Shown here piece after piece: positions 3,499-63,739 of a stretch of DNA of 64,000 nucleotides (the first letter of the stretch is position 1; every line of letters starts with the position of its first letter). The stretch comes from Eledone cirrhosa (taxonomy: Eukaryota), in contig OZ024749.1 of the NCBI GenBank assembly GCA_964016885.1, forward strand, positions 19,840,001 through 19,904,000, given 5' to 3'. Position numbers and translations under genes: made by a program. The notes beneath the pieces were generated by a model. The model worked only from the letters and a program-made list of their open reading frames with translations, was not told the DNA's origin and did no database searches.

Positions 3499-5040
3499 CA
3501 TCTACACATACAACACACACACACACACATATATAAACATATACATATATATATATACACACATACATATATATATATATATATACACACATATATACAC
3601 ATATATACACACACACATATATAGACACACATATATATACACATACACGCACATATACATACACATACATACTTATATACATACAGACATACACATACAT
3701 ACATATATATACACACATATACATACATACATACACACATACACACATACACATACATAGACATAGATATATATTCACCCACACATACGTACTTATATAT
3801 ACGCATATATACAAATACTTACGCATCCATATATCGGTATATACATACAAACACCACTACACTCTCACACAACTCAGACATACAAAGAAAAAGGTATATA
3901 CATATACACATATACACATACAAATAGAGATACATATACATATATATATATATATATATATACATACATATATATATATACATACATATATACACATATA
4001 TATACATACACACACATACATGTACACACACATACACATACATACATACACACATACATATATAGTCACACACACACCTACACAAACATACACATACACA
4101 TATATGTACATACATACACATACATACATACATATACACACATATATATATATATATACACACATACACACATACATACATACACACACACATACATACT
4201 CATACATAGACATAGATATATATTCATACACACATACGCACTTACATATACGCATATATACAAATACATACGCATCCATATATGCGTATATACATACAAA
4301 CACCACTACACTCTCACACAACTCAGACATACAAAGAAAAAGGTATATACATATACATATATACACACATTAATAGAGATACATATACACATATATATAT
4401 ATATATACACACATACATTTATATATATACCCACACACACATACAACCATAAACACACATACAAACACATACATACACACATATATACATATATATACAC
4501 ACACACAAAAACACACATACACATATATATATACATATATATACATATACACACCTTCACATATATACATATACACATAAGTTATATTATAATAATAAAT
4601 AATATATATATATACACATACGAATATATATATACACACATAGATATACATATATATATATATACACGCACACACACACACTCACATATATATGTGCGCA
4701 CACGTACATATATACACATACACACATATACATGTGCATACATGTACATACACACATATACCCACATAGATACGAAGATAGACATATATATAGAGAGACA
4801 TACATATACATACACATATATACATACACATACATACACACATATATATATATATACACATATATATACACATGCATATATACACATATATACATATACA
4901 TATATATATACACACAATCATACATTCTTATTTGCATGCGCATATATGTATTTTTATACTCAGATATAAACACCCAAACATATATACACCTACCTACATA
5001 TATATTCATACATACACGCTTACAAACACAGATGATAATA
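3440..5040. repeat. Compound (CA)/(TA)/(TACA) microsatellite with an internal direct duplication (about 3760-3930 and 4205-4385)
   Basis: Low complexity; the unique block CAAACACCACTACACTCTCACACAACTCAGACATACAAAGAAAAAGGTATA occurs twice. Confidence 0.85.
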
Positions 5041-18455: not shown

Positions 18456-19721
18456 CAGGGTGTGGACGATATTTGTTCGCAATTTTCAACTGCTAATTTT
18501 ATGCAATTTTTTTTTACTTCCGTTGTCATTCTTGTCTTTATAAAAACAGTGACTATATTTCTATTATTTATTTTCAGAATAATTGATTATGAATAATTTT
18601 GAACCTCCAAATTTGTGGAAGAGACACGGAGTTCTTCTTGGAATCCGCGCCGGGAGGACAAATAAGGAAATTTCAGACTTTCTCAGCGTCAGCAGGAGAA
18701 TGGAGGAAAAGGTCAGAAAGGAATTGGAAGATTCAGGATTCGACTACGAAGCAATATCAGAGAGGAAAACACATGATCGACGATTTGACGCCTTCAGAAT
18801 GCCCGAGTTCGCCTCTGAAGTTCAGGATATCATCAACAATGAACCTAGCAAGTCGATGCCTGCCAAGAAAGGCGTGGATGAAAAGCTCATTAGGCTGGTG
18901 GTACATGAAGACATTCGCTACGTTTCATACAAGATGAGGAAAGGACAATTTCTGTCAAAGGCGATGCAAGAAAAGCGACTGCGACTGAAGCACGCAAAGA
19001 AGCTGATCAACAAGTTGAAACATCCACTGGAGCCAGACATGCTGTGGTTTTTCTCCGACGAGAAAAACTTCTGCCAAGACCAGAAGATCAACTCCCAGAA
19101 CAACAGGTGACTCGCTGTCTCATCCAAAGACGTGCCCAGAGTCATGCAGACAAAGTTTCCAGTGACAACATTGGTCTTAGGTGTCGCCAGCAGTCAAGGT
19201 GACGTCATGCCACCTCACTTCATCCCTTGAGGGCCTCAAGCTGAACACCGATGGCTATATCAGCATTCTGAGCGAGATAGTAAAGCCCTGGATCAACCAG
19301 GTAGCTGCAGGTAGGCCGTTGGTGTGGCAGCAAGACTCAGCGCCATGCCATACCAGCTGAAAGACCCAAGCCTGGCTGTCAGAGAACTTTGTCGACCACA
19401 CTTCACCTGACATCTGGCCTCCCAGCTCGCCTGACTGCAACCCCCTCGACTTCTTTGTGTGGGACACAGTGGAACGAGACACCAACAGATCTAGCTGCAA
19501 TACGAAAGACGATCTGAGGGCCAGGATCACAAGTGTCTTTAGGGGCCTAAGTTGCGGGACAGTGACGAAGGCCTGTAGCCGGTTCTGAGGCCGTCATCAA
19601 AGCCAATGCAGATTTATCGAGTGAGATCGAAAGAACAAATCATGAAGACAAACTGACCCAAGTTTGATAAATATATCTTAAAAAATAAAACTACTGTTAT
19701 TTTTTCCTAGTCTGCACCCTG
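18456..19721 (+). mobile_element. Tc1/mariner transposon, DD37D (maT) family, full length but pseudogenised
   Basis: TA|CAGGGTG...CACCCTG|TA; WFFSDEKNF; WQQDSAPCH + 37 aa + NPLD (WPPSSPDCNPLDFFVW); internal stops and frameshift; interrupts a minisatellite continuing on both sides. Confidence 0.93.
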
Positions 19722-31169: not shown

Positions 31170-32425
31170 CACTTTTTGTCGTGACACCTACATGACCACT
31201 TTACAGTGTGGACTGGGGGCCTTTTGTTGTGGCACCAAAACTACTATTTTACAGTGTGGACTGGGCTCCTTTTGTCGTGGCACAAAAACTACCAATTTAC
31301 AGTGTTGGCTGGGCTCCTTTTGTCGTGGCACAAAAACTACCAATTTACAGTGTGGACTGGGGGCCTTTTGTTGTGGCACCAAAACTACCATTTTACAGTG
31401 TGGACTGGGCTCCTTTTGTACCAAAACTACCAATTTACAGTGTGGACTGGGCACCTTTTGTTGTGGCACCAAAACTACCATTTTACAGTGTGGACTGGGC
31501 TCCTTTTGCACCAAAACTACCAATTTACAGTGTGGACTGGGCACCTTTTGTTGTGGCACCAAAACTACCATTTTACAGTGTGGACTGGGCTCCTTTTGCA
31601 CCAAAACTACCAATTTACAGTGTGGACTGGGCACCTTTTGTTGTGGCACCAAAACTACCATTTTACAGTGTGGACTGGGCTCCTTTTGCACCAAAACTAC
31701 CAATTTACAGTGTGGACTGGGCACCTTTTGTTGTGGGACCAAAACTACCATTTTACAGTGTGGACTGGGCTCCTTTTGCACCAAAACTACCAATTTACAG
31801 TGTGGACTGGGGGCCTTTTGTTGTGGCACTAAAACAACAACTTTACTGTGTGGACTGGGCTTCTTTTGTCATGGCACCAAAACAACTACTTTACTGTGTG
31901 GACTGGGCACCTTTTGTCATGGCACCAAAACAACCACTTTACAGTGTAGACTGGGCACCTTTTGTCGTGACACCTACATGACCACTTTACAGTGTGGACT
32001 GGGGGCCTTTTGTCGTGGCGCCAAAAGTACCACTTTACTGTGTGGTCTGGGTACCTTTTGTCGTGACACCTACGTGACCACTTTACAGTGTGGACTGGGG
32101 GCCTTTTGTTGTGGAACCAAAACTACCACTTTACTGTGTGGACTGGAGGCCTTTTGTTGTGGCACCAAAACTACCACTTTACTGTGTGGACTGGGGGCCT
32201 TTTGTTGTGGCACCAAAACTACCACTTTACTGTGTGGACTGGGGGCTTTTTGTTGTGGCACCAAAACTACCACTTTACTGTGTGGACTGGAGGCCTTTTG
32301 TTGTGGCACCAAAACTACCACTTTACTGTGTGGACTGGGGGCCTTTTGTTGTGGCACCAAAACTACCACTTTACTGTGTGGACTGGGGGCCTTTTGTTGT
32401 GGCACCAAAACAACCAGTTTATAGT
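31170..32425. repeat. 39-bp minisatellite (about 30 units, with 39+33 higher-order blocks) expanded from an RTE 3' UTR
   Basis: Unit TTTACAGTGTGGACTGGGGGCCTTTTGTTGTGGCACCAAAACTACCAC-like; the same unit occurs 2-3 times in other RTE tails. Confidence 0.93.
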
Positions 32426-32589
32426 GAGGACTGGGGGCTGAGGTGTTGGAGGTACATGGGGATTGGAGAGTTAGATTTATGGTGGGGCACTTATCTGGTG
32501 GTGGGTGGGTGTGCAGGGAAATGGGTGGAGTGTTGTGATGTGGGAGGTGTATGGAATGGGAGAGGAGGGAGGTGATGTATATAAGATGT

Positions 32590-35199: not shown

Positions 35200-38100
35200 A
35201 CAACAACAACACCAACACCAAGGAAAATACGAATAATATCTACATCAGTGACAACAACAATAACAGCAATAATGACAACACCACCAACACGGATAATTCC
35301 ACAAAGAAACCAAAATCTCCTTTGCACAGACAGTTCAGAAAAAGGAGGAACTGACATATCTTGACATAACAAATGCCGAACAACTTTTAAAGGACGCTAG
35401 GAGATATGTCACTTTCGAAAAGAATGGTGTTTTCAGCATCAATTCTCCGGTAGAAATCCGCAAGGAAACTGCTCTCAAAACGATAGTTTTTAGGAGAGTT
35501 TCCAATTCTACCCGAAAACCAGTCCAATTGTCACAGAAAGAAATTGAACTGGTTTTCAAAAATTCAATGAATGATATTTCATTCATTCAAAGAAGCAAAC
35601 TCTTTGGGAGTATTTTGGTACTCATGAAGGATCAATTGACGGCCCAAAATTACTCTGTGTCGCCAATTGTATCCAAATTGTATACCTTTTTCCCTACATA
35701 CATGGGAAAAAGGACACAAAAGATTAAAATTACGAGTGTCACACCAAAGGTGAACATATGGTGGATGCTGTGCGGCTTCATCAATTTTGATGAAGACAGA
35801 ATACTGTCAGTAGGAAAGTCCCCCAGAGATGTATTCAATGGGACTAGCATTGAAGTTCTGGTGCAAATGAGCCCAGAGCGAATAGCTATGATCCCACAAC
35901 GTGTACTCCTGGACGGACTCACCTACATAAACTTTTCGGTTGAGGGTAGGCAGCCTTCATGTTACCACTGCTTTAGCAGGGGTCACCTGAGGGCTTCCTG
36001 TCCTAAATTAATGAGTCAAAAAAGGCTCTTCTGCCGACACCCATCAAAACAACACAACCACCAACACCACCACAACAACAACATCACCAACACACAAAAA
36101 TAACCACAACAAACACAGTCCCATCTAAAACCACTTCAAAATCACATACAGACACAACAGCTCCCCAAGACATACCCCTCCCCAATCACACAGACGATAC
36201 AACAGATGAGGCTATCTCGCCATCACCCAGTGAAGACGAGGGAGAACCCCATCGCTCGAAAAGAAAGAAAAGACATCACAAAAGCAAAAAACCAGCAAAC
36301 ACTACCACAAACAACAAAAACATCACAAACAAAACCCCACCTCCTGAAAACAAAATACCTACAACAAAACGAAAGCACACACAAGAACTACAGACAAAAA
36401 CAAACACAACACAAGAAAATTACACTTACACTTACATAAACACTGAAAACAAAACACTAATGGAGACCATCACGAACAACCCTTCGGTGAAAACTGAAGG
36501 GAAAACTTTCGCCCACTCTATTAAAAATAACAAAAAACTGAACCTAAAACTGATTAGGGTCCCTATACAAACTTATAGGTCCCTAAAAGAAACATTTGAA
36601 AAGGATGTGGGGAATTCCTGCGTGAAACCACTTAACCACGTCCTTCTCAAATGTCTCCCCACCCCAGACACCCCCATCCCACCAGCCCCCACCCCACCAA
36701 ACATCTCCGTCCCCACCCCGCTGGAAACCACCACCCACCCAGACAACCCCTCCAACACCCCCATGGAAATCGTGCAGCCTGGTCCCCAGGAGACGAAGGG
36801 TGAGTGATCTCTTTTCCTCTTTTAACTTTTCAGCACCAACATGGCCAATATAAGAGTTGGATGTGTGAACGTACGCGGCCAGGTTGCACAGTATGGATGT
36901 AGTAGCCATTTGCGAGTCCAGGATCCACAACGAGCGACAGCTAGCCCCCATCTTCGATGACTTTGAGATCTACGCATCTCTCTGTCGGCCAGGGGGTGGG
37001 GCGGGGTTGCCGTTTTGCTGTGAAAACACCTGGGCCTCGTAACACAAATGGTACATCTGGACCCGGAGGGTCGACTGGTGGTCCTAGACGTTGATGGTAG
37101 TGAAGGTGGAGCCTTCAGGCTGGTGGCTGCATATGCCCCATCCGGGACACCGCGGCCAGACTTCTTCAAACGTCTAGAGACTTTTCTGGGAACGTCCCGC
37201 TCCTTGTTTTTAGTGGGGGACTGGAATGGAATCCTAGATGCACGTTGGGACTATGTGGGAGCATGTCCTGATAAAGGGTGGTGTAACAGCCTCAAACAGT
37301 TAATCGACCGATTTGACCTGGCCGATAGATATCGACTAGATTTTCCGACTGTGCCACTGTGGACGTGGACTAATCGCAGCGGAACATCTAGATCGTACCT
37401 AGATAGGGTTCTAGTTAGAAATAAGGATAGGGACATGTTAAGCTGTCCACAAATGTTCATGGTTGCCTATTCAGATCACAAACTAGTGACCTGCATGGCC
37501 AACCTTGATAGAACCCATAGACAAGGACCCGGCTACTGGAAGCTGAACTTGTCGTTACCGACAAGCAAAGCCTACAGTAGACGGATTAGCACTTTAGTTA
37601 AACAGCACTTGACAGGGGCCATTGTCAACAACAGATGGTGGTACTCTCTCAAGAGGGCAGTTAGATTAGACTCGTTAGTTTTTAGTAAAGAATTAGCGTT
37701 AGATAGAAATAGAACCGAGAAGGAACTGGTAGATAAAGTAGAATAGGCAATTAGAAGTGGCAACGTAGCCAGCGTGCTAGCAACGAGAACGGCCTTGGAC
37801 CAGTTCTTCGACGCAAAGCACGAGGGCTGCGTTGTTAGAAGCAAAATACGTGCTCTGGGAAACGAGGGAGCCAAAGCTGTTAGCTGGGCCCGAGTGACGG
37901 AGGCAAAAAGTGGCAACAAGTCCACGATTCGGTCTTTGAAGGACCAAAACGACACGTCATACGTGAGCCGAAGCAGATGTGTGCGGCCTTTCAGCGGCAC
38001 TTTGCTGAACTGTTCGGGGGAGGGGGCGGCGCGCCAGGAGAGGCTATGGATTTCGGTCCATACCTCGACGGCCTACCGCGACTCTCGGACAGCGAGGCAA

Positions 38101-40445
38101 AGTTCTGCGAAAAGCCGATTTCAGCCGCTGAGATAGGGGACGCGCTGAGCCAATGCGGCAAACGCAAGTCTCCAGGTCTCGACGGTCTACCCTACGAATT
38201 TTACGTAGCAATGCTGGACTTATTCTCCGGTCTCCTGGAAGCGGTCTACTGCAACTGGCGACAGAATGGGAGAATTCCCAGTTCTCTGACCAGAGGCATA
38301 GTCACACTAGTCAGGAAGGACGAGAATAAGGGGGATGACATAGGCAACTTCCGGCCCATAACTCTGCTAAACACCGAGTTACAGATTTTGGCCAAGGTGT
38401 TGGCAAAGAGGCTGGCGCTTGTCGTCGGGAACCTGGTGGGAGAAGCACAGACATGCGCAATCCCGACCAGGTCCATACATGACAACCTCCACCTCATGCG
38501 ATACATCATAGAGAGGGTAGGGTGTAAACCCGGCTTCGGTGGGGACCTGATCAACTTGGATCAGTCTAAGGCTTTCGATAGGGTTGACCATCGTTACCTG
38601 GATGCGGTACTTGAGGCGGCAGGCTTCGAACCCGTGTTCAGGGGCTGGATTGCTGCAATGCACAACAGCAACATCTACTCAAGGGTCAAGGTGAACGGCT
38701 ACCTCTCGGAGCCGTTCCATATTACGCGATCCATTCGACAGGGATGCCCTCTTTCCTCCCTTCTGTACGTACTGACTCTCGAGCCACTACTGCGGAAGTT
38801 GGAGCTATTGCAGGGCATCCCTCTGGAACCGGGACTGCGGAAGCGGCGTCGGCCTAAGCCGACGACGTCGCAGTAATGGTGTTGAGCGCCTCGCAAATTG
38901 AAGAAGTCGGCACCTTACTGAAGGAATATGAAAGTTTCACATGAGCGAAGCTGAACCGGGACAAGTCCATCGGTTTGCAACTCGGATCGTGGAGAGACAA
39001 ACTGATGCCTTCCGATGGCGTCATCGGACGCTAGACGGAAGGACCGGTAAAGCTGCTCGGGGTCTGGTTTGGTCCAGACCTCCAGGTGGAGAAGAACTGG
39101 AACGAAGTGATGGCCAAGGTGTTTGCACTCACCCAGAAGTGGGCCAAGTGCAAACTATCTTTGAAAGGTCGAGTGGAGGTGGCGAACACTTTTATAGCGT
39201 CCGCCATCTACTACCGCTTGACCGTCGTGCCTTGTCCAACCAAAACGCTCACCAAAATGGAGCGCGCGCTCTTCCAATTCCTTTGGAAGAGGCGGGCTCC
39301 TTTGGTGAGAAGATCCATCTGCTGCCAACACCCTTCTAACGGAGGGCTGGGGATGCCGTGGTTGACGATGCACAAACACGCGCTCAGGCTGCAACATCTC
39401 TACGTATACCTCACCAGACAACCGGTGTGAGCCCCGTTTGTGAGGCGAGCCTTCCCACGACTCGTCTCGCTGATCGAGCTGCAGTCCTGGGTCAAGCAAA
39501 GACTGAGGAAAATGGGCGACTGGCACATCGAATGTGCTCAGGCGCTCAGCCCTCTGGCAGGCGGACCCGGTGATCAGTGGAGACCCCACTTCGTCATTCT
39601 ATAGAGGGTTGATCCGCAGCAAGTGCGACGATGCGCTCGGTGAAACTCTAGGCGTAGAGGAAGATGAACTGGCCAGTCTGTTCGGTAGGACCTTCCGCCC
39701 GGGACCGATGGACAACTTCCAAAAGTCCCTGGCTTGGCAGTGCTACCGAGGAGCTCTACAGACATGGGCGCCCGGGCAGGGACCCTGCAAAAAAGATCTG
39801 TCCGAGGTGCGTGCGAGACGAAGAAACCGTCGCTCTCACATTCATACACTGCCCGGGCGTCACTGACCTGTGGGGCTATGTTGAACGACTATTGTCGCGG
39901 GTGGGACCAATCTGGTTGACCACCGAGTCCATTGTCATGATCAAACCGCCACCCTCCTTCAAAAACGAAGGAGAGGCGGTTTTCCTTTGTGTGATAGCTA
40001 TGGCGAAAGAGGTTGTATGGTGGACAAGGTTGAAAGGGCTGAGGTCAGACACCTTTCTCTCCGGCCAACAACTGATTCTTTTTTTCAAATACCACTGTGG
40101 AAGAAGAATCAGGATGGAGAGAGAGGTGCTGTACCCCAGCAAGTTTTATGAAAGGTGGGTGAAAGTGACGAGAATGGCCCGAGTGAATGGGCCTTCTCTT
40201 TATATCAGCCTGTAGGTTGAGGAAAAGGAGAAGGAGAGGAAAGGAGTACAAACTCTTCGTACTCCTGGTTGCACATTTTTTCGGGGGTATGTGTTACCCA
40301 TATAAACTGTCTCTCCCTATTGGGGAAAATCGACTAATTTTTAAATTGCATTTGTGATAACATTTTACACGTTTTTATTGTATGTAAACTTCCCCCTTTG
40401 TATTTGTCCCCTTCTTTTGTGCCCCTGAGGCTAATAAAGAAACAT
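35200..40445 (+). mobile_element. Near full-length L1/Tx1-clade LINE, disrupted (ORF1 with CCHC knuckle; ORF2 APE-RT-zinc finger)
   Basis: ORF1 VEGRQPSCYHCFSRGHLRASC; ORF2 from 36841 MANIRVGCVNVRG, GDWN, SYLDRV, SDH, GYWKLN, KSPGLDGLPYEFY, NFRPITLLN, LDQSKAFDRVDH, RQGCPLS, CPRC..ET..HC; AATAAA at 40433. Confidence 0.93.
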
Positions 40446-40499: not shown

Positions 40500-40830
40500 C
40501 CATTTGTCTCCACCAACACCACCACTGCTACCACCCCAACCACCAACATCACCACCATTGCCACCACAACTAACCACCACCACTAGCACTTCCGCTGCCA
40601 CCACTTCTACCACCACCACTATCACCACCACTGCCATAACTGCTACCACCATCACCATCATCACTACCACCACCTCTACCAACACCAACACTACTACTAC
40701 TACCTCTACCACCACCAACACTACCACCACCACCACCTCTACCAACATCACCACCAACACTACTACTACCTCTACCACCACCAACACCACCATCACCACC
40801 ATCACTACCACCACCTCTACCAGCACCAAC
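40500..40830. repeat. (ACC/ACT/AAC)n trinucleotide repeat
   Basis: Poly-Thr and poly-Val ORFs are artefacts. Confidence 0.9.
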
Positions 40831-41322
40831 ACTACCGCCACCAACACTACCACTACCTCTACATTGTGGTAACAACAACACTACCGCCACCAACACTACC
40901 ACTACCTCTACATTGTGGTAACAACAACACTACCGCCACCAACACTACCACTACCTCTACATTGTGGTAACAACAACACTACCGCCACCAACACTACCAC
41001 TACCTCTACATTGTGGTAACAACAACACTACCGCCACCAACACTACCACTACCTCTACATTGTGGTAACAACAACACTACCGCCACCAACACTACCACTA
41101 CCTCTACATTGTGGTAACAACAACACTACCGCCACCAACACTACCACTACCTCTACATTGTGGTAACAACAACACTACCGCCACCAACACTACCACTACC
41201 TCTACATTGTGGTAACAACAACACTACCGCCACCAACACTACCACTACCTCTACATTGTGGTAACAACAACACTACCGCCACCAACACTACCACTACCTC
41301 TACATTGTGGTAACAACAACAA
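40831..41322. repeat. 49-bp minisatellite, 10 copies
   Basis: ACATTGTGGT recurs at 40861, 40910, 40959 ... 41302 (period 49). Confidence 0.95.
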
Positions 41323-42359: not shown

Positions 42360-45300
42360 TCATCATCATCATCATCATCGTTTAACGGCTATCTTCCATG
42401 CTAGCATGGGTTAGACATATGTTGTCCCACTTGAGGCAAGATTGGTCGGATGACCGTGTCTCGCTCATATAGGACTATCTGGCAGGTTTTCTACGGCTGG
42501 ATGCCCTTCCTAGCACCAACCACGTTTACAGTGTGGAACTGGGAGGTTTTTACTGTGTGACCACATTACAGCGTGGACTGTGTGTTTTTTTTTGTCGTGA
42601 CACCTACACGACCTCATTAGTTCGGACTGGATGTTGTGGTACCAATATAACTTTAGTGAGAAAGGGATGGTGTTGGCGGGAGTGGAAGGATGGAGTAGAG
42701 GTAATGGGTTGGGGTGTATGTTTGGTTTGGGGGGCCCTACTGACTGTAGGTTAACTTTGCATGTAGGGAAGGCGGGTCTTCTGTAATACTGCGTGGCGCC
42801 AAAGATCTCGATCCAGTGACATTGTCTTAGAGAGGTGCAAGTGTGCAAGGTTGGAATTTATCATGTCGTCCCAGGTTTTTTTTGGTCTACCTACTCTGTA
42901 ACTTCCATCAATTTTGATCGCCCTGCACTTTTTTATACAGCTGTCGTTTTTCATTCGCATCACGTGACCATGCCAATGTAATCTTCTCTCAAGTAAACAG
43001 CATCTAATTCCTCTTATTCCTAATTACTCACTTAGTTCATTTATGTTTTGCCATTCATGTATTACACATCCAAAGGAGCATGCATGCTTCGTTCCTTTCC
43101 AGCCTGCACAGATCCTCTGCACACAATGCCCATGTCTCATTGCCATGTAACAGCCTGTCTTTCATTTTTAGGGAGAACCCTTTAGCGGCTAATAGTGGTA
43201 TAAGCTCTCTGAACTTTTTGCATCCCGTTCTGACTCTGGCTACTGTATTTTAAGAGTCCCCTCCACCACTGGTGATTTTGTCACCCAGGTAACAGAAAGT
43301 GTCCACTATTTCTATAGAATCATTTGGGCAGTAGAAGGAGCTAGTATCCTGTGGGCACTTGCTACTTATTGCACCTGAGCATTGGCTACATATAAAATCT
43401 ATGTTCTTAGATAGCTTGCCTGTGATCCCACTACATCTTTTGCATTTGGGACAGAGAATGGAATTTCTACCTACTCCTTTCCTACACACTAAGCATGGCC
43501 ATTTCCCAGAGGGCACCTGTGCCACTAGAACTTTAGTCTTAGACAAGTTAACTTTAAGGCTTTTTGATTCTAGGTCATGCTTCCTGTTTGGAATTTCTTC
43601 TCTAGTTCAGCCATAGACTCAGCTATGAGAGTTAGATCATCTGCATATAGAAGTTCCCATGCGCAGCTGGTCTTAAACTCCTCTGTTATAATAAACAGGG
43701 CAATAATAAACAGGAGGGGGCTAAGGACAGAGCCTTGATGAACACCAACTTTTACGCTAAACTCTTCACTATATTCGTTGTTAATTCTAACCTTGCTGAC
43801 TGTATCTTTAAATCTTTAAATGGCTTGTATAGCTCTCACAAGTCATTCATCTACTCTTAGTTTTCTAAGGGCCCACCAGATAATGGAGTGTGGAACTCTA
43901 TCAAAGGCTTTCTTCAAGTCAACAAAAGCTAAGTAGAGGGGTTTATTTTTAGCTAGGTACTTCTCCTGTAGTTGTCGTACAAGGAAAAGAGCATCTATGG
44001 TACTTTTACCTGACACAAACCCAAACTGCATTTCGTCTATATCAATTTGATCTCTGATTAGTTGTGCTATAACTCTTTCTGTGACCTTCATGACCTGGTC
44101 AACTAACTTAATGCCTCTATAGTTTTCTCTATCTAGGGCGTCTCCTTTACCCTTGTAGCAGTTAACGATGCTGCTGCTACGCCAGTCGTTTGGTATGACC
44201 CCATTCTGTATTACTTGGTTTACTATCCGGGTGACCATAGTATGTCCCATCATTCCAGATGCTTTCAACATCTCAGCAACTATCTCCGAAGGCCCAGCCG
44301 CCTTGCCTGTCTTCATATCTTTGATTACCTTACTTATTATACTACCTTTAACTTGCACCGCTGGTCCTTCTTTTGGATCGATTTGGGGCAGACTATCTTT
44401 TCCCCATTTATTCTCCTCATTTAATAGTCTTTCGTAGTGACACTTCCAAGCTACCTTCTTGTCAGTGAGGGCAAGTACACTATCATCATTACGGACACAC
44501 TTCTCCCCAACAATATCACGGTTTTCCTTGACACATTATCTTGCAATCCTGAACACCTCACGTTTTTGGTCCTCGCGTTGTAGAACATGCTTGAACTTTC
44601 TATCCTCTGCTTCCCTTCTTGCAAGGTACACTTGCCTCCTAGCTACCCTCCTGGCCCCTTGATAGTGTTCTCTACTTCTCCCATCCCGCCATACTTTCCA
44701 AGCCTGCTTTTTGGCCTTGATTGTCTATGCCACCTTACTGTTCCACCACCAAGTTACTCTCCTCCTGCCAATAGGTCTGCTCCAGCCACAGATTTCATCT
44801 GTCACTTTCAGCAGGTTCACTTTCAAGAATTCCCACTGTTCCTCTATATTGTACGTCTCTAATTGCTCTTCCTTATTGTCAAAAGCATCAAGTAATAAGC
44901 TTTTATGACTATGGGGTCCTTCAACTTCCATATTCTTCTCCTGAAAGTAGTCCTCTGACTATGAGGACACTAACTACTAGGCTATGTTGGGAGGTGCATT
45001 CTTCATGGGGGAAGGACTTAGTGTTTACAACAGACACTCTATCACGTCTTCTAGTAAGGATATAATCTGTTCCCCTGATCTGTGGGTGATCAAGTGATTG
45101 TCTTGTTTTTTGAAGTTTGTGTTACAGATAGTTAGGCATCACAGAATTCCAGGATTCTGAAACCTTCCTCATTTCTAATACCAAACCCATAGCCTCCATG
45201 GATTCCGTCATAGCCATCACAATGTTGTCTAATGTGACCATTCAGGTCGCCAGCATTAATTAAGTAGTCACTGTCGGTTATTTGGGAGGTAGTGTGCATT

Positions 45301-45585
45301 AGCGATTCATAGAACCTGTCTTTTATAATGTCAAGCAGGCCAGATTGGGGTGTATAAGCAGATATTATTGTCGCAGTAGTTCGATTTAGAACTAGTCTTA
45401 TTTTAATTATTCTGTTATTCACTCTATTTATGACAATTACCTTATCTACACATTTTTCTCCTAACATAATTCCTACTCCACCCAGTCCGTTGTCATTTCC
45501 CACCCAGAAAAGTTTATAACATTGTTTTTTACCCACAATGAATCTAGCAGACCCACCTCTCCACCTAGTCTCTTGAACACAACAT
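42360..45585 (-). mobile_element. RTE LINE, nearly full ORF span (APE + RT + PHD), decayed
   Basis: CVQETRW, ISAYTPQ, GDLNGH, NYRGIKL, QFGF, AFVDLKKAFDRV, WPCLVCRKGVGRNSILC..FICSQC, GRPKKTW, (ATG)n tail. Confidence 0.92.
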
Positions 45586-45597
45586 ATATATATATAT

Positions 45598-46145
45598 TAG
45601 ACTGTTGGAACTAGCTGTTGAAACAGCAAGAGCTCAGCAGTCAATCCTGACTCTTTCTAATATAATCATACTCTACTATCTCAAGTATTGAGTACTATGT
45701 TGAATAATGGTCTAAATAATTTAATACTGGTTTACTCCCCATATATGTATACATACACACATGGTCTGAAACAACAATAATAACTAGGTCACTGGCTGTC
45801 TCCGAATCAAATATTTTTTTCTGTATTTTCTCTGTTTGTGTATGCCATAATCTCTTTATTGATTAAATGATTATGCAATATACACCTGATGATGTTGCCA
45901 GGATCTTGCATAACCAGGACATTGAAATATATATAGTGTTTTTGCATCAATAAAACTTTAAAGGAACATCACCAGTCCGGCCTCTTGTTATTGTAATCAA
46001 ACCAATATTTAACTCCATTCCTGCACGAACCACAGGATTCAACATCAACGATAGATGAGTTGCGTAACGTAGAGTGCTTTTCCTACTATCGCATCATGGT
46101 TAAATAAACAGAATGACTAAACGGAGTGGTGAACCACTAAACATG
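45598..46145 (+). mobile_element. Probable solo Penelope-type pLTR between (TA)n tracts
   Basis: Non-coding unique block containing a hammerhead followed by AATAAA. Confidence 0.5.
45873..45947 (+). ncRNA. Type I hammerhead ribozyme
   Basis: ATGCAA.TACAC-CTGATGA(45886)-TGT..ACA-TT-GAAAT-ATAT-ATA-GTGTTTTTGCAT; stem I CAC/GTG plus TGCAA/TTGCA. Confidence 0.68.
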
Positions 46146-50990: not shown

Positions 50991-52239
50991 CTGCAAAGAC
51001 CCTCAACAAGATGATTCTTAACAGGATCCAGCCCGAGATGGAGAAGAAGCTCAGGGACAATCAGAACGGTTTCAGAGAGGAAAGATCAACCACCAGTCAC
51101 ATCCTGATGCTGAGGAGGATATTAGAGGGAGCTAGAGCAAAGTGCCTTCCTGCGGTCATGGTTTGACTTTAGGAAGGCCTTTGATTCTTCATCACTGCCT
51201 GATGAAGATCTAACAGGCTTATGGAATCCCCAAGAAGCTAGTGGACCTGATATCATTGCTCTATACCAACACCAAAGCCTGATGGGATGACAGAGTTCAT
51301 TGAGATACTGGTTGGAGTGCTCCAGGGAGATACATTGGCTCCCTACCTTTTTATCATTGTAGTGGACTATTGTATGCGCCTTGCGCTGGAGAAACACCAG
51401 GTCTCTGGCTTTACTGTAACACCTGCTCAGAGCAGGAGAGTTAAGGCAAAAAAGATATCAGATGCTGAATTTGCCAACGACATAGTTTTGGTGACAAACA
51501 CAGTGAAGGAGACAGAGGATTTGATGCAGGCGGTGGAGACTATGTTGATGGGTGTGGGGTTGAGAATGAATGAGATTAAGACAAAATATCTGGTAGAGAA
51601 TATTAAGAAGCCAGAGAAGATTACTAATGTAGGCGAGAAGCCGCTAGAATTGGTTGAGGACTTCCTGTATTTGGGAGCAAAGATTGGGAATACGGAAGAT
51701 GATGTGGTTGAGAGGAAGAGCAAAGCCTGGGCGGCGAACCACAGCTTGAGATCGGTGTGGAAGTCGGACCTTCGTAAAGACCTGAAGATCTGCCTCTTCG
51801 TTGCTATAGTGGAGTCTGTGCTGTTGTACGGGTCTAAGACTTGGACACTGACCAAGAAACTCACTCAGATGGTGGATGGGTGCTACACGAGAATGCTGAG
51901 GATGGCTCTAAACATTAATCAGTATACACTGAGGATGAAGAACTCAGAGCTGTACGGGAGCCTCCCAAAAGTCAGCTCAAAAGTGACACAGAGGAGACTG
52001 AGGTTAGCTGGACATGCTCACCGACATCAAGAGTTGACATTGCATTCAGTGTTCCTGTGGGAGCCCCTGTATGGCACACTGGAAGAGGAAGACCGAAGTT
52101 ATCATATGTTGATGCCCTAAGGACAGACACTGGTCTGTTGGAGACGCAGGACATGGCAGCAATAATGAGGGACAGAGACCACTGGAGAGAACTCATCCAT
52201 GGATCTCGGGAATTTTACCCGCCCCAGATAGATAGATAG
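50991..52239 (+). mobile_element. 5'-truncated RTE-group LINE with (GATA)n tail
   Basis: NQNGFR..STTSHIL, DFRKAFDS, GVLQGDTLAPYLFIIVVDY, FLYLG, ESVLLYGSKTW, RRLRLAGH. Confidence 0.9.
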
Positions 52240-52427
52240 TTGTCCCCAGTATTCATGGACGTTACATGTATAATATATACATTCATGCACACGTGTGTGT
52301 ATGTGTAAAGCTGTTGGTTAGACACATTATATTTACATCCTTCTTATCAATTCATCTTCAGCCAGGTTACTTAAATGATGTAAAGTTATGAATAACTTTC
52401 AGCCAACTTATCTATCTATATATATAA

Positions 52428-52565
52428 TCTTCTATATATATAAAACAGAAGATGTCTGTCTGTCTGTCTGTCTGTGTAACCGCATGCATTTCTATATTTT
52501 ACAATCGATTTGCACCAAATTTCATATATAGGTTTCTGAAGAGTTATACCGGGTACCACTGCTAG
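52428..52565 (+). mobile_element. Miniature Helitron (about 138 bp)
   Basis: A|TCTTCTATATATATAAAAC, (GTCT)n, 3' CCGGGTACCACTGCTAG|T resembling the 17893 terminus. Confidence 0.7.
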
Positions 52566-52591
52566 TATCTAATAAAAACAACAATAGCAAC

Positions 52592-53358
52592 TGTGGTTAG
52601 AAAAAGCTATCTCACTTACCGCTTTTCATAGGCGCCGCTAAATCCCATGGCTGGTTTCTCCTCTTCCACATGCGTCCAACTCATTAACACCCGGGAGCTG
52701 CCAAACTTGCGTCCACACCGTTCCTGGTCACCACTAGAGAGAGACCAATCTGCTGGCCCTTCCGGTCGAGCACCCTTCCGGTCAAGCACTCTTCAGGTCG
52801 AGCACTCCCCAGCTTCCGGCCACCGCACACCACATCATACCCCCCCCCCCCCCGATCTCAAGGATCAATTTTCCCCTTGTCCTTCTGCATATGAAAGTCT
52901 GCTGTCCAGGTTGGTGGTTTGCGACTTCTTTGCGATCTCCGCAGTGTTGGGGCTGCACTTTGTTGAGTTTCCTCTTCCTCGGAGTCCGTTGACACAGTGA
53001 TTCTATGGACATCCAGGACATGATGTGGTACTCCGTCCACGGACACATTGTTCTGGGAATTTACAGCCGTCACCGTTCCCCTTCCCCATTGAGATGTGCA
53101 ACGTGCATCTGGGGGCTTAACCCAGACTTCTTTGCCCACCTGCATGAATGCATTCTCTCTCCCCACTGGCCGTTGTGGTGGCGCGCACGGGTGCCGCCAC
53201 TCGTATCTGAATACTGCTCTGTGTGGCACCGATTCCTCAACCTGTCCCACCCGAGGGGACATGTTGTACCAGAACACTGCCTCCATTGGTGAGATATGGC
53301 CCCACTCCGCCATTGCCTTGATTGTCCGGTGGTGTCGCTCCACAATTCCATTCCAGCA
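52592..53358 (-). mobile_element. Gypsy LTR retrotransposon 3' fragment (integrase C-terminus, PPT, probable 3' LTR)
   Basis: NGIVERHHRTIK..AVFWYN..EVWVKPP..CTSQWGRG; poly-G PPT at about 52840-52854; putative LTR about 52837-52592 ending CA. Confidence 0.8.
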
Positions 53359-56300
53359 ATATTTTCCCATGTATCAGCAGAGATGTTAGCGTCTTTCAAG
53401 GAATCCTTATACCTCTTTTTTGGTTTATGAGGCGGTCGTTTTCCTTTAACCGACTCTCCATAAAAGAGTTGTTTTGGTATTCTAGAATCCTTCATCCTGG
53501 CAAAGTGACCACTCCAACGGAGTCGTTGCTTAAGCACAAGAGCTTCTATACTGTCACACATAGAGCTTTCCAAAATCTCGACATCACTGATGTGGTCCCC
53601 CCAGTGAACGCCATGGATCCGTCTGAGACACATCTGATGGAAACGCTCCAATTGCTTAAGGTGGTGTCGATATGTGACCCAGGTCTCGCAGGCATAAAGA
53701 AGACAAGAGAGCACACATGCCCTGTACACCTTTACCTTTGTCCTCCTGCATATGTCTCGCCGACCCCAGAGTCGCCTTTCTAGCTTTCCGAAAGCATCAC
53801 TTGCTTTCCTAATCCTAAGTGAGATTTCACTGTCAAGGTTGCTGTATCGATTGACAGTGCTTCCCAGGTAGACAAACTGATCAACCACTCCAAGTCGTTT
53901 ACCATACACATAGATATTTGGCTCAGTGTACTGCCTACCAGGGGCAGGTTGGTACATGATGACAGTTCTCTTGAGACTGACAGTCAATCCTAGGGCAGTG
54001 CAAGCGTCAGAAAATGCATTCAAAATGTGCTGCATATCACTCTCTGTGTGTGCTACAAGATCGCAATCATCTGCATACAAGAGGTCTCTTATGATTGATG
54101 TAAATACTTTTGTCTTTGCAGCAAAGCGCCTGATGTTAAATATGCTGCCTGAGGTTCGATATCGGATGTAAACACCATGCTCACAATTCCTGAATGCAAT
54201 ACAGAAAACCATTGCAAAGTATATGGCAAACAGGGTCGGTGCTGGAATATCCCCCTGTTTCACTCCATTTTTTACTGAGATAGGCTCCGACATGTTACGT
54301 CCGACATTAACCTAAGCCTTCATGTCGCCATGGAAAGACCTAACTAAAGCAAGGAACTTATCAGGGCAACCAAGTTTCTGGAGAACCTTCCATAATGCAT
54401 CTCTGTTAACAGTATCGAAAGCTTTTGTCAGATCGACAAAACCTGATACAGATCCAAGCCTTGTTCCATGCACTTCTCCTGGAGCTGTCTAGCTGAGAAG
54501 ATCATATCAGTAGTGCCGCGTCCAGCACGAAAACCAGATTGACTTTCAGGAAGAACACAATCTGCAATGTGTGTCAGCAGACAGTCCAGAAGCACCCTAC
54601 ATAAAACTTTCCCTACGACAGAAAGCAATGATATACCTCTGTAGTTCCCACAATCATTCCTGTTACCCTTTCCCTTGTACAAGACCACCATTACTGCATC
54701 TCTCCAGTCCTCAGGTACGGATTCATTAGCCCATATCCTGCCAAACAAAGAGTGAAGATGTTGCAGGAGTCTCTCACCACCATATTGTAGGAGCTCAGCA
54801 TGTATGCCATCCATACCTGGAGATCTTCCACTGTTCAGCTTCGAAATAGCCACTGCAACGTCCACAAGCATCGGAGGTTCTGCGAGAGCTACTTTCACAG
54901 GACTTTCTGGAATGAGATTGAGGAAATCTTCACTGACGACAGACGGCTGATTCAAAAGATCATCAAAGTGCTCTCGCCACCTTCGTAGAATTCCTTGTGA
55001 GTCACAAAGAAGTTCTTTGCCATCCTTGCTGCGAAGCAGTGTCACCAGAGAAGAAGACGGTCCATAAACCTCACGCAAGAGACTGTACAACAGCCTTGTG
55101 TTATTGGAATCTGATGCAGTTTGTATCTCACCAGCCTTCTCACTCCACCACTGATCCTTCATCTGAGAAAGACTCCGCCTAACACGTGATTTTACATCCT
55201 TGAGTTCCTCATGCAACGTATTCTTCTCCTGTGGTTTTGCCGTCAAGTAGCGCGACAGAGCATGCCTCTTATCAGCCAACAAGTCTTCTATATGTACATC
55301 ATTCTCATTAAACCAGTCCTGATGTTTTCTCTGCACCAATCCCAGAACACGCCTGCCTACATCATAAACCGACTTTTTAAGGGTCGGCCAATCCTCACCA
55401 AGATCTGCAGCCTGCATCTCTTCTTCCAATGTCCTCTTCACATTTTTATCCTTAAGACGAGCAGCATTCAATCTTTTGGGCAGGGCAACACCAGGAGCCC
55501 AGATTTTACGTTTAGTGATTAGTTTCACTTTTGCGCGTACCAGGCGGTGGTCCGTCCAGCACTCAGCTCCACGAAGAACACGAACACACTGCACATCCTG
55601 TCTGTCACGCATCCTGACTAGGACGTAGTCCAAAAGATGCCATTCCTTAGATGCAGGATGCATTCATGTGGTCTTGAATTTGTTCTTTTGTTGGAACATG
55701 GTGTTGGTAACACACAGATCCAGCTCCTCACACATCTGCAGCAGGAGCATACCATTGTTGTTACACTTTCCTACCCCATGCCTTCTGATTACATTCCATG
55801 TGTTAAAATCCCTACCCACTCTAGCATTAAAGTCACCAAGCACGATGACTTTGTCTGCCTGAGGGATATTTCTTAAAACACCTTTCAAGGCATGGTAAAA
55901 GGACACTTTTTCTTCATCGACAGAATTCATAGTTGGAGCATACACACTCACCAGGGTCGCATATCTTCCTTTGTCCAGCGGAATTCTCATGGACATAAGA
56001 CGCTCACTAATCCCTACTGGGAATTCTTCTAATTTATTCACAAGTACAGTCTTAACAGCAAATCCTACCCCAGCCTCTCTTCTGGTTCCTTCATCTTTTC
56101 CTTTCCAGAAGAATGTATATTCTCCACAAAATTCTCTAAGATGACCATCTCCAGCTAACCTCGTCTCAGATAAAGCCACGATGTCAAGATCGTAACGTCG
56201 AAGCTCCTTTACAACAAGAGCGGTCCTTCGTTCAGGACGCTCCAAGGAATCCCTGTCAAGCAGCGTCCGTACGTTCCAGCAGCCAAGACTAAATGCCTTG

Positions 56301-56400
56301 TTTGGCTCTATTACAATGGCACGATGACGAGCGGGCCCATGCTGTGATAACCTGGGGCCCCTGCCCTTATTGCCAATTATCTTTTTTGTTCCAGAACCTA
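53359..56400 (-). mobile_element. RTE (BovB-like) LINE, APE + RT, few frameshifts
   Basis: GCWNVRTL..RPERRTALV..ALSETR, SVYAPT, LGDFNARVG, WHLLDY, NYRGISLL, ESQSGFR, GVKQGD, LLYADD, LLYACETW. Confidence 0.94.
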
Positions 56401-56466
56401 AATTGCCAATTATCTCTTTCTGGAACATCATTGAATTTGAAAAAAAAAAAAAGTAATAATAGTAAC

Positions 56467-56499
<33 letters not shown>

Positions 56500-56503
<4 letters not shown>

Positions 56504-57930
56504 TATGCAATTTGGTATTAGTAAGTGTGGAGTCATTGTGATGAAGAGGGGTAAGCTGAGCAGAAGTAACGGAATCCAGGTACCAACAGGTGAGATGATA
56601 AAGGAAATTGACTCTGAAGAAGGATACAAGTATTTGGGCGTTCTGGAGGCTGATGACATCAAGAACAAAAAAATGAAGGAATTGATATGAACTGAATACA
56701 TTTGGAGAGTAAGGAGCGTATTAAAGTCACATCTGAACAGTAGGAATGCCATAAGTGCAGTAAATTCCCGAGCTGTGTCTATTATTAGGTACAGTGCGGG
56801 AATTCTGAGATGGAATGTTGCTGAACAAAAAGAAATGGATAGGAAGACTAGGAAGCTATTGACTATCTATAACATGTTCCACAAGAGGAGTGATGTCGAT
56901 AGACTCTACTTAAGGAGATCTGAAGGTGGAAGAGGTCTTATCAGCATAGAGGACTGTGTTCAGATGGAGAAAAACAACCTACACAAATACGTGACTGATA
57001 GTAAGGAGCCAATGCTCAGAACTGTACTGAAGGAGGGGACAATAGGCCAGGGGATGTCCAAGGAGGAAATAACATCAAGGAGAAAGAGCAGCCTTCAGGA
57101 AAAATCCCTTCATAGTACCTTCTTTGAGAAAACTGAATTTAGAGATCCACAGACATGTAACTGGTTGAAAAGAGGAGACCTTAAAAAGGCTACAGAAGGA
57201 ATGTTAATGGCTGCGCAGGAGCAGGCCCTCAAAACGAAGTGGTTGAAACACCATATTTACAAGGAGGAGGCTAACCCACTGTGCAGGATCTGTGGAGAGA
57301 GAGAGGAGACTGTGGCTTACATTGTATCCGAGTGTAAACACCTAGCCCAGACTCACTATAAGGGCTGGAGACATGATGTGATGGGCAGGGTGATCCACTG
57401 GCACCTATGCAAAGTAAACAATTTACCACATTCTGAGAAGTGGTATGAGCATAAGCCAGAGGTGGTGATAGAAAACGATCAGGTGAAGGTGCTGTGGGAT
57501 TTTAGGATACAGACGGACAAGAAACTGGAACACAATAGACCTGACCTGGTGGTTGTGGACAAAGAAAAAAGATCGTGTCTGATTGTGGATGTGGCCTGCC
57601 CATTCCACACGAGAGTGCAAGAGAAGGAGAGGGAGAAAATTAACCGATACCAGGACTTAAAGTGGGAGGTAAAAAGGATTTGGAACTGCCATGAAGTCAA
57701 AGTGATCCCGATTGTCATAGGCGCACTAGGGACTATCTCAAAAAGTTTCCAGGGATGGTTAAAGAAAATTGGCCTCTTCACGCTTTTTGGAATGCTTCAA
57801 AAGGCATGCTTGCTGGGAACAGCAAGAACCCTCCGATACGTCCTGAATATCTGAGGCTGCAGGTAGTGGCTTGATATTCATTTCAACAAACTTTCCAGTT
57901 AACTAACATCAATGACTGATACTCAAAGAG
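56500..57930 (+). mobile_element. R4/Dong-clade LINE (restriction-like endonuclease), 5'-truncated, within (TAA)n
   Basis: MQFGISKC, YKYLGVLE, RLYLRRSEGGRGL, AAQEQAL, CRIC..ET..ECK..RHD, HNRPDLVVVDK, DVACP; (TAA)n on both sides. Confidence 0.92.
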
Positions 57931-59649: not shown

Positions 59650-60101
59650 GAGAAGAAAGAAGGATACTGCGTGGTTGCACATGGGTTACATATGATAAAA
59701 ATAGTCCTTCGTCAGAGATTTGCCAACCATCATTGATATTTCATCGCATTAAAAATCATATACCTCAGGTTGGTGCGAGCAATAACTAAAAAAAGCTATT
59801 GGGACAAGTAAATCGCGTAAAGCGAGTGAGACAAGTAAACAACATAGAAGGATGAAAGCAACGCAAAGATGGGAATAAACAAGCAACATGGTTGTCCGGT
59901 CAGCATAAGCTGGGTGGATTTCATGTATATATATATATATATATATTGTTATACTTTGGGAGGGTCATGTTGCCAATAAGAAACACACGCACCAGATGCT
60001 TTCACTTCAATTTAATTTATTATATATTTATAAATTTACAAATTTATAAATTTCTGGTTGGTTGGTTGGTTCCACAACCAGATAGTTGTTTATATATATA
60101 T

Positions 60102-60146
60102 AGTCATAGTTCTTTCGTCACACACTCTGTGACCTCTTCAGTGACT
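60102..60146 (-). ncRNA. Type I hammerhead ribozyme (mirror copy)
   Basis: Reverse complement of 60252-60296. Confidence 0.85.
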
Positions 60147-60251
60147 GGGGATTTCTTTCTTCGTTTCTGTGCCTTTCCTTTCTTCTATCCTACGCCATTT
60201 TGGCGTAGGATAGAAGAAAGGAAAGGCACAGAAACGAAGAAAGAAATCCCC

Positions 60252-60296
60252 AGTCACTGAAGAGGTCACAGAGTGTGTGACGAAAGAACTATGACT
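60252..60296 (+). ncRNA. Type I hammerhead ribozyme
   Basis: AGTCA-CTGAAGA-G-GTCACA-GAGTG-TGTGAC-GAAAG-AA-CTA-TGACT. Confidence 0.85.
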
Positions 60297-60507
60297 ATAT
60301 ATATATAAACAACTATCTGGTTGTGGAACCAACCAACCAACCAGAAATTTATAAATTTGTAAATTTATAAATATATAATAAATTAAATTGAAGTGAAAGC
60401 ATCTGGTGCGTGTGTTTCTTATTGGCAACATGACCCTCCCAAAGTATAACAATATCGGTTTCAACACACGATTTCAGATAAAGAATCTTGCTAAACAAAT
60501 TCAGAAA

Positions 60508-60561
<54 letters not shown>

Positions 60562-61924: not shown

Positions 61925-62256
61925 TTCAAAATATTAATAAATATAGACATTCATGTGATCAAATATATTTTATTATATATATTTCAGAGGTACTGTGCTG
62001 TTTCCTCAGTACGTCCTCATCAGATAAAATACATAAATTGATGTATGACATACCTCAACTGTACTGATGGTTCAATTCCAGTCTTGACTGCCAAGACTGG
62101 AATTGAACCATCAGTACAGTTGAGGTATGTCAGACATCAATTTATGTATTTTATCTGATGAGGACGTACTGAAAAAACAGCACAGTACCTCCGATATATA
62201 TATAATAAAACATATATTTTGATTATGTGAATGTATCCATTTATTAATATTTTGAA
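61925..62256. mobile_element. Fold-back pLTR pair of Penelope-like element 2
   Basis: About 160-bp arms around GTCTTG-ACTGC-CAAGAC (62081-62097), directly upstream of the PLE ORF. Confidence 0.85.
61966..62031 (-). ncRNA. Type I hammerhead ribozyme; the plus-strand mirror at 62147-62211 has GAAA>GATA
   Basis: TATTTTAT-CTGATGA-GGACGTACT..AGTACCTCT-GAAAT-ATAT-ATA-ATAAAATA. Confidence 0.78.
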
Positions 62257-62268
62257 TAATATATATAT

Positions 62269-63739
62269 ATGTATAGAGCTGATACCTCTAACAACTTTGA
62301 CATCACAATGGGAGCATCCGATTCATCCCAATTGACAGATTTAATTGGTATCTTTATTTTGAACTCTTTGAATCGGAAAATTCCTCAACTTCGCGGTGGA
62401 ATTTATCGTGACGATGGACTCTTTACTATCTTAAATTGCAACATAGTTAACCTTAACCTTAAAGAACAATATACGTAATCTCTTTAACCAACATAACTTA
62501 AAAATTGAATTTGATAAAAGCATCAAACTAGCTAATTTCTTGGATGTATCTCTTAATCTTGACACTGGCCTATATTACCCTTACCATAAAAACAATGAGA
62601 ACCTAAATTATGTTAATTTTAAATCTAACCACCCCACTAATATTAAGAATGCTATAGTTAGTAATATTGGAAAAAGAATATCTAACCTATCTTCTAATAA
62701 AAACATCTTTGATGCTAACGCCAATTACTATAATAACGCGCTTTCTAAAGCCGGTTATCCTGATAAAATCAAATATAGTAAAGAAACAAATTCTAGAAGA
62801 TCTTACAGTAGAATAATTAATCATGATCATTCCAATAACTTTAATAAAAGACCTAGATACAAAAACATAATCTGGTATAATGCTCCTTTCTCCATCTCTA
62901 TTAATAATAATATTCCTAAATTATTCTTTAGTGCCTTAAATAAATGCTTCCCTCCCTCACATATCTATAGTAAAATATTTAACAAACACACTATAAAATT
63001 TTCCTATTCGACCTCCTCCAACATCTCCAACATTATCTCTAAACACAACAATAAAATACTAAATACTAAATCTCTTCCTTCGAACACTGAATATCATAAT
63101 AATAGTAATAGTACTCCCGACGTCATTGTAAACTCTAGGCTAATTTCTGCAAACCCAAATATGTCAAACGCAACTTCGTTAAATGTTCTTAATCCCATTC
63201 TAAATCAAGAAACTATTATTCCTATCGTAAATAACTTCTCCAATCCAATTCCTTCTATAGATAACACTAGGTCACTTGTTAATAACTCTGTTAATTTCTC
63301 TAATCGCAATTGTAATTGCCCTGTTAAAAATAAATGTCCTCTCAACAACCATTGTCTTGAAAAAAACTTAATCTACGAATGTAAAGTTATAACTGACACC
63401 AATTCCTTTACCTATTTTGGCTCCACTTCCACCTCCTTTAAAGCTCCTCTTTATAATCATCATTCGTCTTTTAAATACCAACTTAAAAGAACCAACACGG
63501 CACTCTCAGAACTCATATGGTCCTTGAAAGACAAAAATATTAACTATAACATCTCTTGGAAGAAGGTTTGTTCTGCTTCTCCATACTTGAATAGTTCTCT
63601 ATCCAAGACATGCAATCTCTGTTTATGTGAAAAATTTACCATTATATCTAATTTAGATTCTATAATAAATAGATGCACTGACTTGTTTTCTCTCTGCTTG
63701 CATAAATTCCACAGAACATTCCATAAAGTATACAGCTAA
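62269..63739 (+). mobile_element. Penelope-like retroelement ORF (Naiad type), 5'-truncated, frameshift at about 62460
   Basis: FDITMGASDSSQLTDLIG, GIYRDDGL, NFLDVSLNL, IIWYNAPFS, CNCPVKNKCPLNNHC, IYEC..YFGST, CNLCLCEK. Confidence 0.92.

Follow-up and report, generated by a model that had tools for sequence, protein, structure and literature searches.

Insertions of Penelope-like elements (PLEs) often comprise an inverted, 5'-truncated copy of the element together with a tail of 30-40 bp at one end, as described in the accessible part of PMC8557442. For Penelope of Adineta vaga, the available sections of PMC3846280 report pseudo-LTRs (pLTRs) that include the first codons of the open reading frame (ORF), inverted pLTRs, palindromes at junctions and target duplications, and propose self-priming on an antisense template. 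In these same portions of text, both papers name the formation of PLE inverted repeats and tails as unresolved. Minimal hammerheads are found in PLE pLTRs, where a single motif did not cleave in vitro, and Schistosoma mansoni carries dual motifs on opposite strands, 100-700 bp apart (PMC4209133, available part). With regard to PAc, a Poseidon element of Anolis, both strands were cut and extended in vitro, two internal start sites bound the tail, and a dimer is predicted; its hammerhead is protein-assisted, with a cleavage that is dispensable for insertion, and the inverted products are left unexplained in the sections available (PMC11167929). In LINE-1, twin priming at one insertion site gives an inversion, and an extra G marks a capped, full-length template (PMC4859970, in extract). 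In non-LTR retrozymes, direct repeats follow one another in tandem, and a single strand carries two or more hammerheads (10.64898/2026.07.22.740005, in extract).

Here, we describe a perfect palindrome in a stretch of 64,000 nucleotides from Eledone cirrhosa, referred to below as the window. The palindrome itself is a known kind of PLE insertion, namely an inverted pLTR insertion of a Neptune-like PLE. We propose, with a probability of roughly 0.85, that it consists of head-to-head terminal repeats of a young, high-copy PLE and was likely made at insertion by copying one capped RNA twice. A literature search by titles and abstract openings, covering papers outside subscription, found no published account of cap-marked, same-template arms in PLEs.

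Structure of the palindrome

The two inverted arms are located at positions 59943-60197 and 60201-60455 of the window; each is 255 nt long, they are 100% complementary in the assembled sequence, and a TTT loop separates them. Among pairs at most 600 nt apart, this is the longest inverted repeat in the window. The insertion corresponds to G000:C9:19899943-19900510 in a genome of 3.0 Gb. A preliminary description of this DNA had reported 255-bp arms, a 3-nt loop and no mismatch, as well as an extra tail of about 55 bp on one arm and (TA)n on both sides, all of which was borne out.

The left arm and loop (59943-60200, minus strand) form an inverted pLTR copy without tail, whose outer end lies 26 nt into the PLE ORF, at the 'short' site. 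The right arm (60201-60455, plus strand) is a sense pLTR copy with 99% identity to the pLTR of the autonomous element (L092:4424-4678), and only this arm continues into the PLE 'tail' (60456-60510, plus strand), which is the ORF stretch from the short end site to the long end site. The region had been described as devoid of coding capacity; in fact, positions 60430-60510 of the plus strand are the first 27 codons of the reverse transcriptase (RT)-endonuclease ORF of the PLE, cut off where the insertion ends. With these 27 codons only, the window copy is likely a dead end.

The TTT loop is a templated extension of the left, minus-strand arm into the A run upstream of the repeat, with L092 as template, and the tail-less arm is the longer arm at this junction. 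The head-to-head junction (60195-60205) has one T common to both arms, is without a cap-like C, and falls in the region where transcription of the element is inferred to start. Both PLE families considered here have kept the word AAAATGGCG at this point (60201-60205 of the window; L092:4420-4428), and we take it to resemble a YY1-type start element. On the outside, the insertion is flanked by the left (59926-59946) and right (60510-60556) parts of the (TA)n target, inside which a target-site duplication would be indistinguishable.

The autonomous element

The autonomous partner was located via three evenly spaced hammerheads, 4,423 bp apart on contig C1 (locus L092). The tandem unit at this locus measures 4,423 bp, and its open frame extends over 1,329 aa from stop to stop, or 1,318 aa from the ATG at 4653. 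The order in L092/L093 is pLTR-ORF-pLTR, and the pLTR includes the ORF start. The right arm and tail of the window copy are equal to L092:4424-4733 except for 3 bases in 310 nt; as the copy differs so little from an intact element, the insertion is recent, in agreement with the preliminary description. Another search for the autonomous element, by the tail followed by a non-TA base, gave 280 matches, and 0 of the 30 loci examined led into a long ORF. Locus L036 was considered as a continuation into the element body and rejected, the continuation being unique flank.

The Pfam search gave no match for the L092 ORF or for the neighbour ORF. The C-terminal 769 aa have 163 homologues, the best of which (68% identical) is an octopus protein labelled RT-domain. 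A structure model of these 769 aa, built with 64 sequences, has a mean pLDDT of 90, and telomerase RTs take the first four places among its PDB matches (E 6e-8 to 9e-7); the ORF also has a profile match to an RT at 1e-5. The motifs of the ORF include DKSG, YVDD, a C-x4-C-x2-C linker and a GIY-YIG core enclosing two cysteines. By motif, the endonuclease is of the GIY-YIG type with CCHH, showing a VVY...YIG core, two cysteines between and two later histidines, and its sole PDB sequence match, a weak one, is an intron endonuclease (E 0.26). The linker is present in L092 and in the sister-family copy L198, and an alignment of 64 proteins shows its cysteines to be invariant. A long in-frame, low-complexity stretch rich in Asn, Thr and His lies in the N-terminal part of the ORF (L092:5400-5950) and recalls the Asn-rich ORF inserts of Adineta vaga Penelope (PMC3846280, available part).

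These features fit a C-terminal-endonuclease PLE of the Neptune/Nematis type, a clade assignment made by motifs. As in the Neptune and Nematis elements covered by the available part of PMC8557442, one ORF encodes an RT followed by GIY-YIG, with a CX2-5CxxC linker and CCHH, and the element shows partial-tandem pLTRs with a hammerhead, an inverted 5'-truncated copy, a tail at one end and (TA)n targets. In contrast to the PLEs in that text, the tail here is 55-59 nt long instead of 30-40, and the window copy is an inverted pLTR pair without a body. As in Adineta vaga Penelope (PMC3846280, same sections), the pLTR holds the first ORF codons, the tail extends them, and an inverted pLTR lies at the 5' side. 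The palindrome is almost certainly a pair of PLE pLTRs.

Copy number and outer ends

A search of the genome with arm and tail gave 1,367 candidates, and the 40 that were scored are all 99-100% identical. The exact 46-nt stretch of the hammerhead occurs 3,819 times (control 0), and head-to-head junctions with a spacer of at most 30 nt give 492 matches, a few of them nested double counts. The view of the origin given in the preliminary description stands in part: it missed that the arms are terminal repeats belonging to a Penelope-like retrotransposon, copies of which number in the thousands.

The element has two fixed outer ends, 26 nt (short) and about 81-85 nt (long) into the ORF. Exact ends running into TA number 11,704 for the long, tailed form and 13,652 for the short form, with controls of 0. 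The two sites are 59 nt apart in the ORF start, and both are AATAT and overlap the (TA)n target. Of the 3 loci passing the filter, only L021 has a clearly non-TA site; an 11-bp target duplication is visible there, compared with 8-10 bp in Adineta vaga Penelope; the families of that species have very few copies, whereas the family described here has more than 10,000 ends (comparison with the available part of PMC3846280). A further 459 matches continue into the ORF, again with controls of 0, and, among the matches listed, 12 are in one local array. At G000:C1:132947044-132947576, a tandem array of 12 listed units with a period of 46 bp consists of the tail-to-ORF junction of the same family.

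Pairing of the arms

The junction sample comprised the first 46 loci in contig order out of the 492 matches, obtained with a search pattern that forces both arms to reach the start of the repeat. In this sample, 42 junctions pair a short with a long arm, one has a partial tail and three have an unreadable end; no short-short or long-long pair is present among the 46. The spacers derive from upstream sequence of the element itself, in trimmed or joined form; 37 of them are distinct, and the commonest, of 27 nt, is found at 5 of the 46 loci in both orientations relative to the tail (2 and 3). Where the junction is lopsided, the short arm is the longer in 8 cases, as in the window, and the tailed arm in 8.

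Pairing was also seen from the ends. A head-to-head short end lies within 9 kb of 36 of 84 long ends, when about 0.012 per end would be expected; as exceptions, 6 long ends are in long-long head-to-head pairs and 43 are without an exact short partner within 9 kb. Of 30 tail-anchored loci, 20 have an inverted piece no more than 1.5 kb away, and at 16 of these the short end is visible. Arm lengths form a continuum up to kilobases, and both arms often extend into the 3' end of the ORF.

Concordance of the arms and cap-like base

The arms were compared in 44 copies (47 junction loci minus 3 without a complete arm). They differ by 0.91 substitutions within a copy, compared with 3.66 between copies. 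One variant is present in both arms of 20 copies and in one arm of a single copy, the expected numbers being 9.6 and 21.9; overall, a variant that several copies share is nearly always present in both arms. Among private variants, 38 are arm-specific and 15 are in both arms, the latter spread over 10 copies that include the window copy, and fully identical arms are found in only 18 of the 44 copies. Concordance extends to pairs with spacers of 0.4-6 kb: in the 8 pairs parsed out of 11 candidates, the values are 1.1 and 7.3 substitutions, and 20 shared variants are in both arms and 0 in one arm. To judge from the sequences, these shared variants show that both arms have the same source locus, which is not strictly the same molecule.

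The upstream A run is reached by 72 of 92 arms. Of the 49 arms that end on an RNA A, an untemplated C follows in 32, including 12 that count only if a longer T run is allowed, and at most 17 of the 32 cap-like ends are free of slippage ambiguity. By analogy with LINE-1, we read this C as a probable copy of the cap; both start site and cap are thereby placed from DNA junctions. All six junctions with a cap-like C on both sides have the same start class on the two sides, and both ends are within 1 nt of each other in 22 of 27 junctions (mean 8.4 and maximum 19 in 10,000 shuffles). The matching starts could partly come from annealing of two like ends.

Model of insertion

A route in which two cDNAs are made from one capped RNA is, in our view, the probable origin of the palindrome. 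The GIY-YIG endonuclease would cut both strands of a (TA)n tract, and each free end would prime reverse transcription at one of the two AAUAU sites inside the ORF start. Priming of one end at the short site and of the other at the long site would leave the tail on a single arm. In the window, synthesis of both cDNAs would have continued through the first pLTR and ended close to the capped 5' end, and a one-base overlap would have served to join the two 3' ends. At other loci, longer or unequal arms may arise if a later pLTR of a tandem transcript is used for priming, or if synthesis stops early. We lean slightly towards a stricter form of this model, in which a two-site complex primes both cut strands on one capped sense RNA, one per fixed site. 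Nearly every insertion would then be born as a short and tailed pair, and a pLTR-only palindrome would be the complete product of first-repeat priming.

The inverted parts that twin priming produces in LINE-1 correspond to separate RNA stretches, whereas both arms of the palindrome described here cover the same stretch. PAc resembles the present family in having AT-rich targets and two start sites inside the ORF that bound the tail, and belongs to a different clade; the available text of PMC11167929 gives no strand-specific start site and no primer homology for PAc, whereas both sites here overlap the TA target. While PMC3846280, in its accessible sections, favours antisense self-priming, the junctions of this family favour two cDNAs from a capped sense RNA.

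If correct, two-site priming would account in one model for the inverted repeat, for the tail on one side only and for the requirement of tandem copies, and would replace antisense self-priming. Each palindrome could then also act as a promoter facing outward in both directions, and such ends number more than 10,000 in this genome. The hundreds of perfect palindromes of at least 250 bp are plausible sources of dsRNA and fragile sites. With an element that is intact and was recently active, and with hundreds of young junctions, the family allows sharp predictions: fixed pairing of short and long ends, one template for both arms, and capped starts at the centre.

Hammerhead motif

The hammerhead motif, of type I, occupies positions 60252-60296 of the plus strand, with a mirror copy at 60102-60146 of the minus strand that is implied by the 100% inverted repeat. 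Its 45 nt comprise a 5-bp helix I, the core sequence CUGANGA followed by a single unpaired base, a 6-bp helix II, GAAA, and a helix III of 2 bp; cleavage is predicted after the CUA triplet at 60289-60291, i.e. after position 60291. In the window, Rfam gave no match at the gathering score and, at E of at most 10, 45 matches to generic hairpin models only, none to a hammerhead, and the fold of a 61-nt stretch with the motif is no more stable than that of shuffled sequences (z -1.12). The motif therefore rests on its core and on covariation in helix II, where 6 pairs are kept with 2 double changes between the window family and its sister family. Helix I has 5 bp here; in the sister family, it has 2 bp adjacent to the core. 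The intact hammerhead claimed for each strand in the preliminary description is thus confirmed as a motif, with a complete and mirrored core, while the Rfam and folding results do not carry the word 'intact' beyond that.

The motif resembles the minimal hammerheads in the available part of PMC4209133 in its short helix I, its long helix II preceded by an unpaired base, and its helix III, which is small or lacking in those motifs. Unlike in those hammerheads, loop III (AA) is not palindromic here, and for this reason the helix of a dimer is predicted to be weak (0.4 kcal/mol, versus -1.8 for the sister family). A pair of hammerheads on opposite strands cannot form a tandem dimer. None of 60 end-anchored arms starts at the predicted cleavage site (one partner arm starts 2 nt away), and 10 of the 60 start within 20 nt of the start of the repeat.

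Either full strand is predicted to fold as a perfect 255-bp rod of about -460 kcal/mol, compared with -11 for the hammerhead fold, which agrees with the earlier proposal that a transcript through the locus forms rod-like dsRNA competing with the ribozyme. The further proposal of a built-in switch is not supported. In read-through from either side, the antisense arm would be made first, so that the ribozyme would be masked during synthesis, and transcripts from the element's own inferred start would be without the antisense arm, as this start lies at the centre of the palindrome. Given also the 2-bp helix III and the unstable dimer helix, a ribozyme/antisense switch appears unlikely from these predictions. 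We infer that the hammerhead is a passenger of the pLTR. Formation of dsRNA by read-through transcription of the palindrome is plausible; no RNA run was among the sequencing runs listed, which is no evidence either way.

Alternative explanations

The main rival, which we consider unlikely, involves the same element: one strand would fold back and prime itself, either on an antisense template or by snap-back of a cDNA, and the endonuclease would later trim the tail from one arm. Identical arms, shared variants and matching starts would all be accounted for at once. Fold-back is the published reading of head-to-head PLE palindromes (PMC3846280), and the attribution of the tail to endonuclease resolution in PMC8557442 is in line with trimming (available parts of both). 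However, fold-back of a tailed cDNA predicts that the extra bases are always on the tailed arm, whereas the lopsided junctions are divided 8 to 8 and the tail-less arm is the longer one in the window. A single strand could hardly give rise to loops of one base or to a cap-like base on both sides, and the cap-like bases point to a sense, not an antisense, template. Symmetry could instead have been maintained after insertion by arm-to-arm gene conversion, as the preliminary description suggested, or by cruciform repair, and the 15 private variants in both arms of 10 copies, the window copy among them, are in favour of this. The 38 arm-specific private variants and the presence of fully identical arms in only 18 of 44 copies argue against it, and concordance is no lower between arms separated by 0.4-6 kb than between adjacent arms. 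Gene conversion is therefore not needed, and we regard it as improbable.

The idea of a dedicated non-autonomous palindromic element, or of a viroid-like or retrozyme-like RNA, copied as a unit and containing a switch, is largely refuted. Viroid-like RNAs with ambisense ribozymes are circular RNA replicons with different ribozymes per polarity. The palindrome shares with them and with retrozymes a small, non-coding unit with a type I hammerhead and a ribozyme motif on both strands, but its second motif arose by DNA insertion, as a mirror copy of the first, and the DNA context points to a retrotransposon insertion. The viroid-like design suggested in the preliminary description is not supported. 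Copying as a unit would suit the fixed outer ends, the hundreds of near-identical palindromes and the recurrence of some spacers, such as the 27-nt one (5 of 46), and the available part of 10.64898/2026.07.22.740005 reports animal retrozymes as non-autonomous PLE derivatives. Against this stand the 37 distinct junctions in 46, the recurring spacer that lies either way round relative to the tail, the arm lengths that are continuous up to kilobases, and, at this locus, the lack of tandem direct hammerheads, with one motif per strand. In addition, the rod leaves no room for the ribozyme fold, and the predicted cleavage site is not the starting point of any of the 60 end-anchored arms. Finally, perfect palindromes are a known class of artefact of assembly or of fold-back reads, and at this locus the palindrome is known from the assembly alone. 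Three DNA-like sequencing runs match at 0.78-0.80, and as all three come from one sample, they give no independent support. Nevertheless, an artefact is the least probable of these explanations, since the two flanks are different unique sequences, the tail is one-sided, and the same rule-bound structure recurs at many loci with patterned junctions, aged copies with diverged arms and the 11-bp target duplication of L021. Production at insertion from a capped PLE RNA remains the reading that we prefer.

Sister family and neighbouring elements

A sister PLE family (L198, G000:C1:14385500-14395000; L199 and L008) is arranged in tandem with a period of 4,147 bp and has palindromic pLTR pairs of its own. 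It has the ORF start in common with the window family, with synonymous changes, and the same two end positions; in the copy examined, its ORF is in two frames. A degenerate hammerhead pattern covering both families gives 11,432 matches. With regard to pairing, 3 loci of the sister family are of the short and tailed kind, and, at one locus (L190/L191) that lies at a tandem array, both arms carry tail sequence. A 5'-truncated RT piece of this family lies about 700 bp beyond the end of the window (L127:2900-3600, G000:C9).

The window contains a second, older PLE insertion of another family at 61963-63739, with inverted arms of 124 nt that are 95% identical. By eye, the minus strand of its left arm has a hammerhead-like motif with a helix I of 7 bp. 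Its 5'-truncated frame of 430 aa has a CxCx5C linker, CxxC and CxH but no CCHH. Judging by motif, it fits the Hydra clade in the available part of PMC8557442.

Long ORFs at 12000-62000 of the window resemble, by eye, transposon fragments and simple repeats, and no host gene was identified among them. Broken frames resembling non-LTR retrotransposons, with endonuclease and RT motifs seen by eye, are located at 13100-14190, 37000-40200, 43800-45600 and 51250-57850. A minisatellite of 27 copies of 48 bp occupies 31174-32438, a 49-bp array of 10 identical copies lies at 40827-41321, and a short transposase-like frame is found at 18583-19110.
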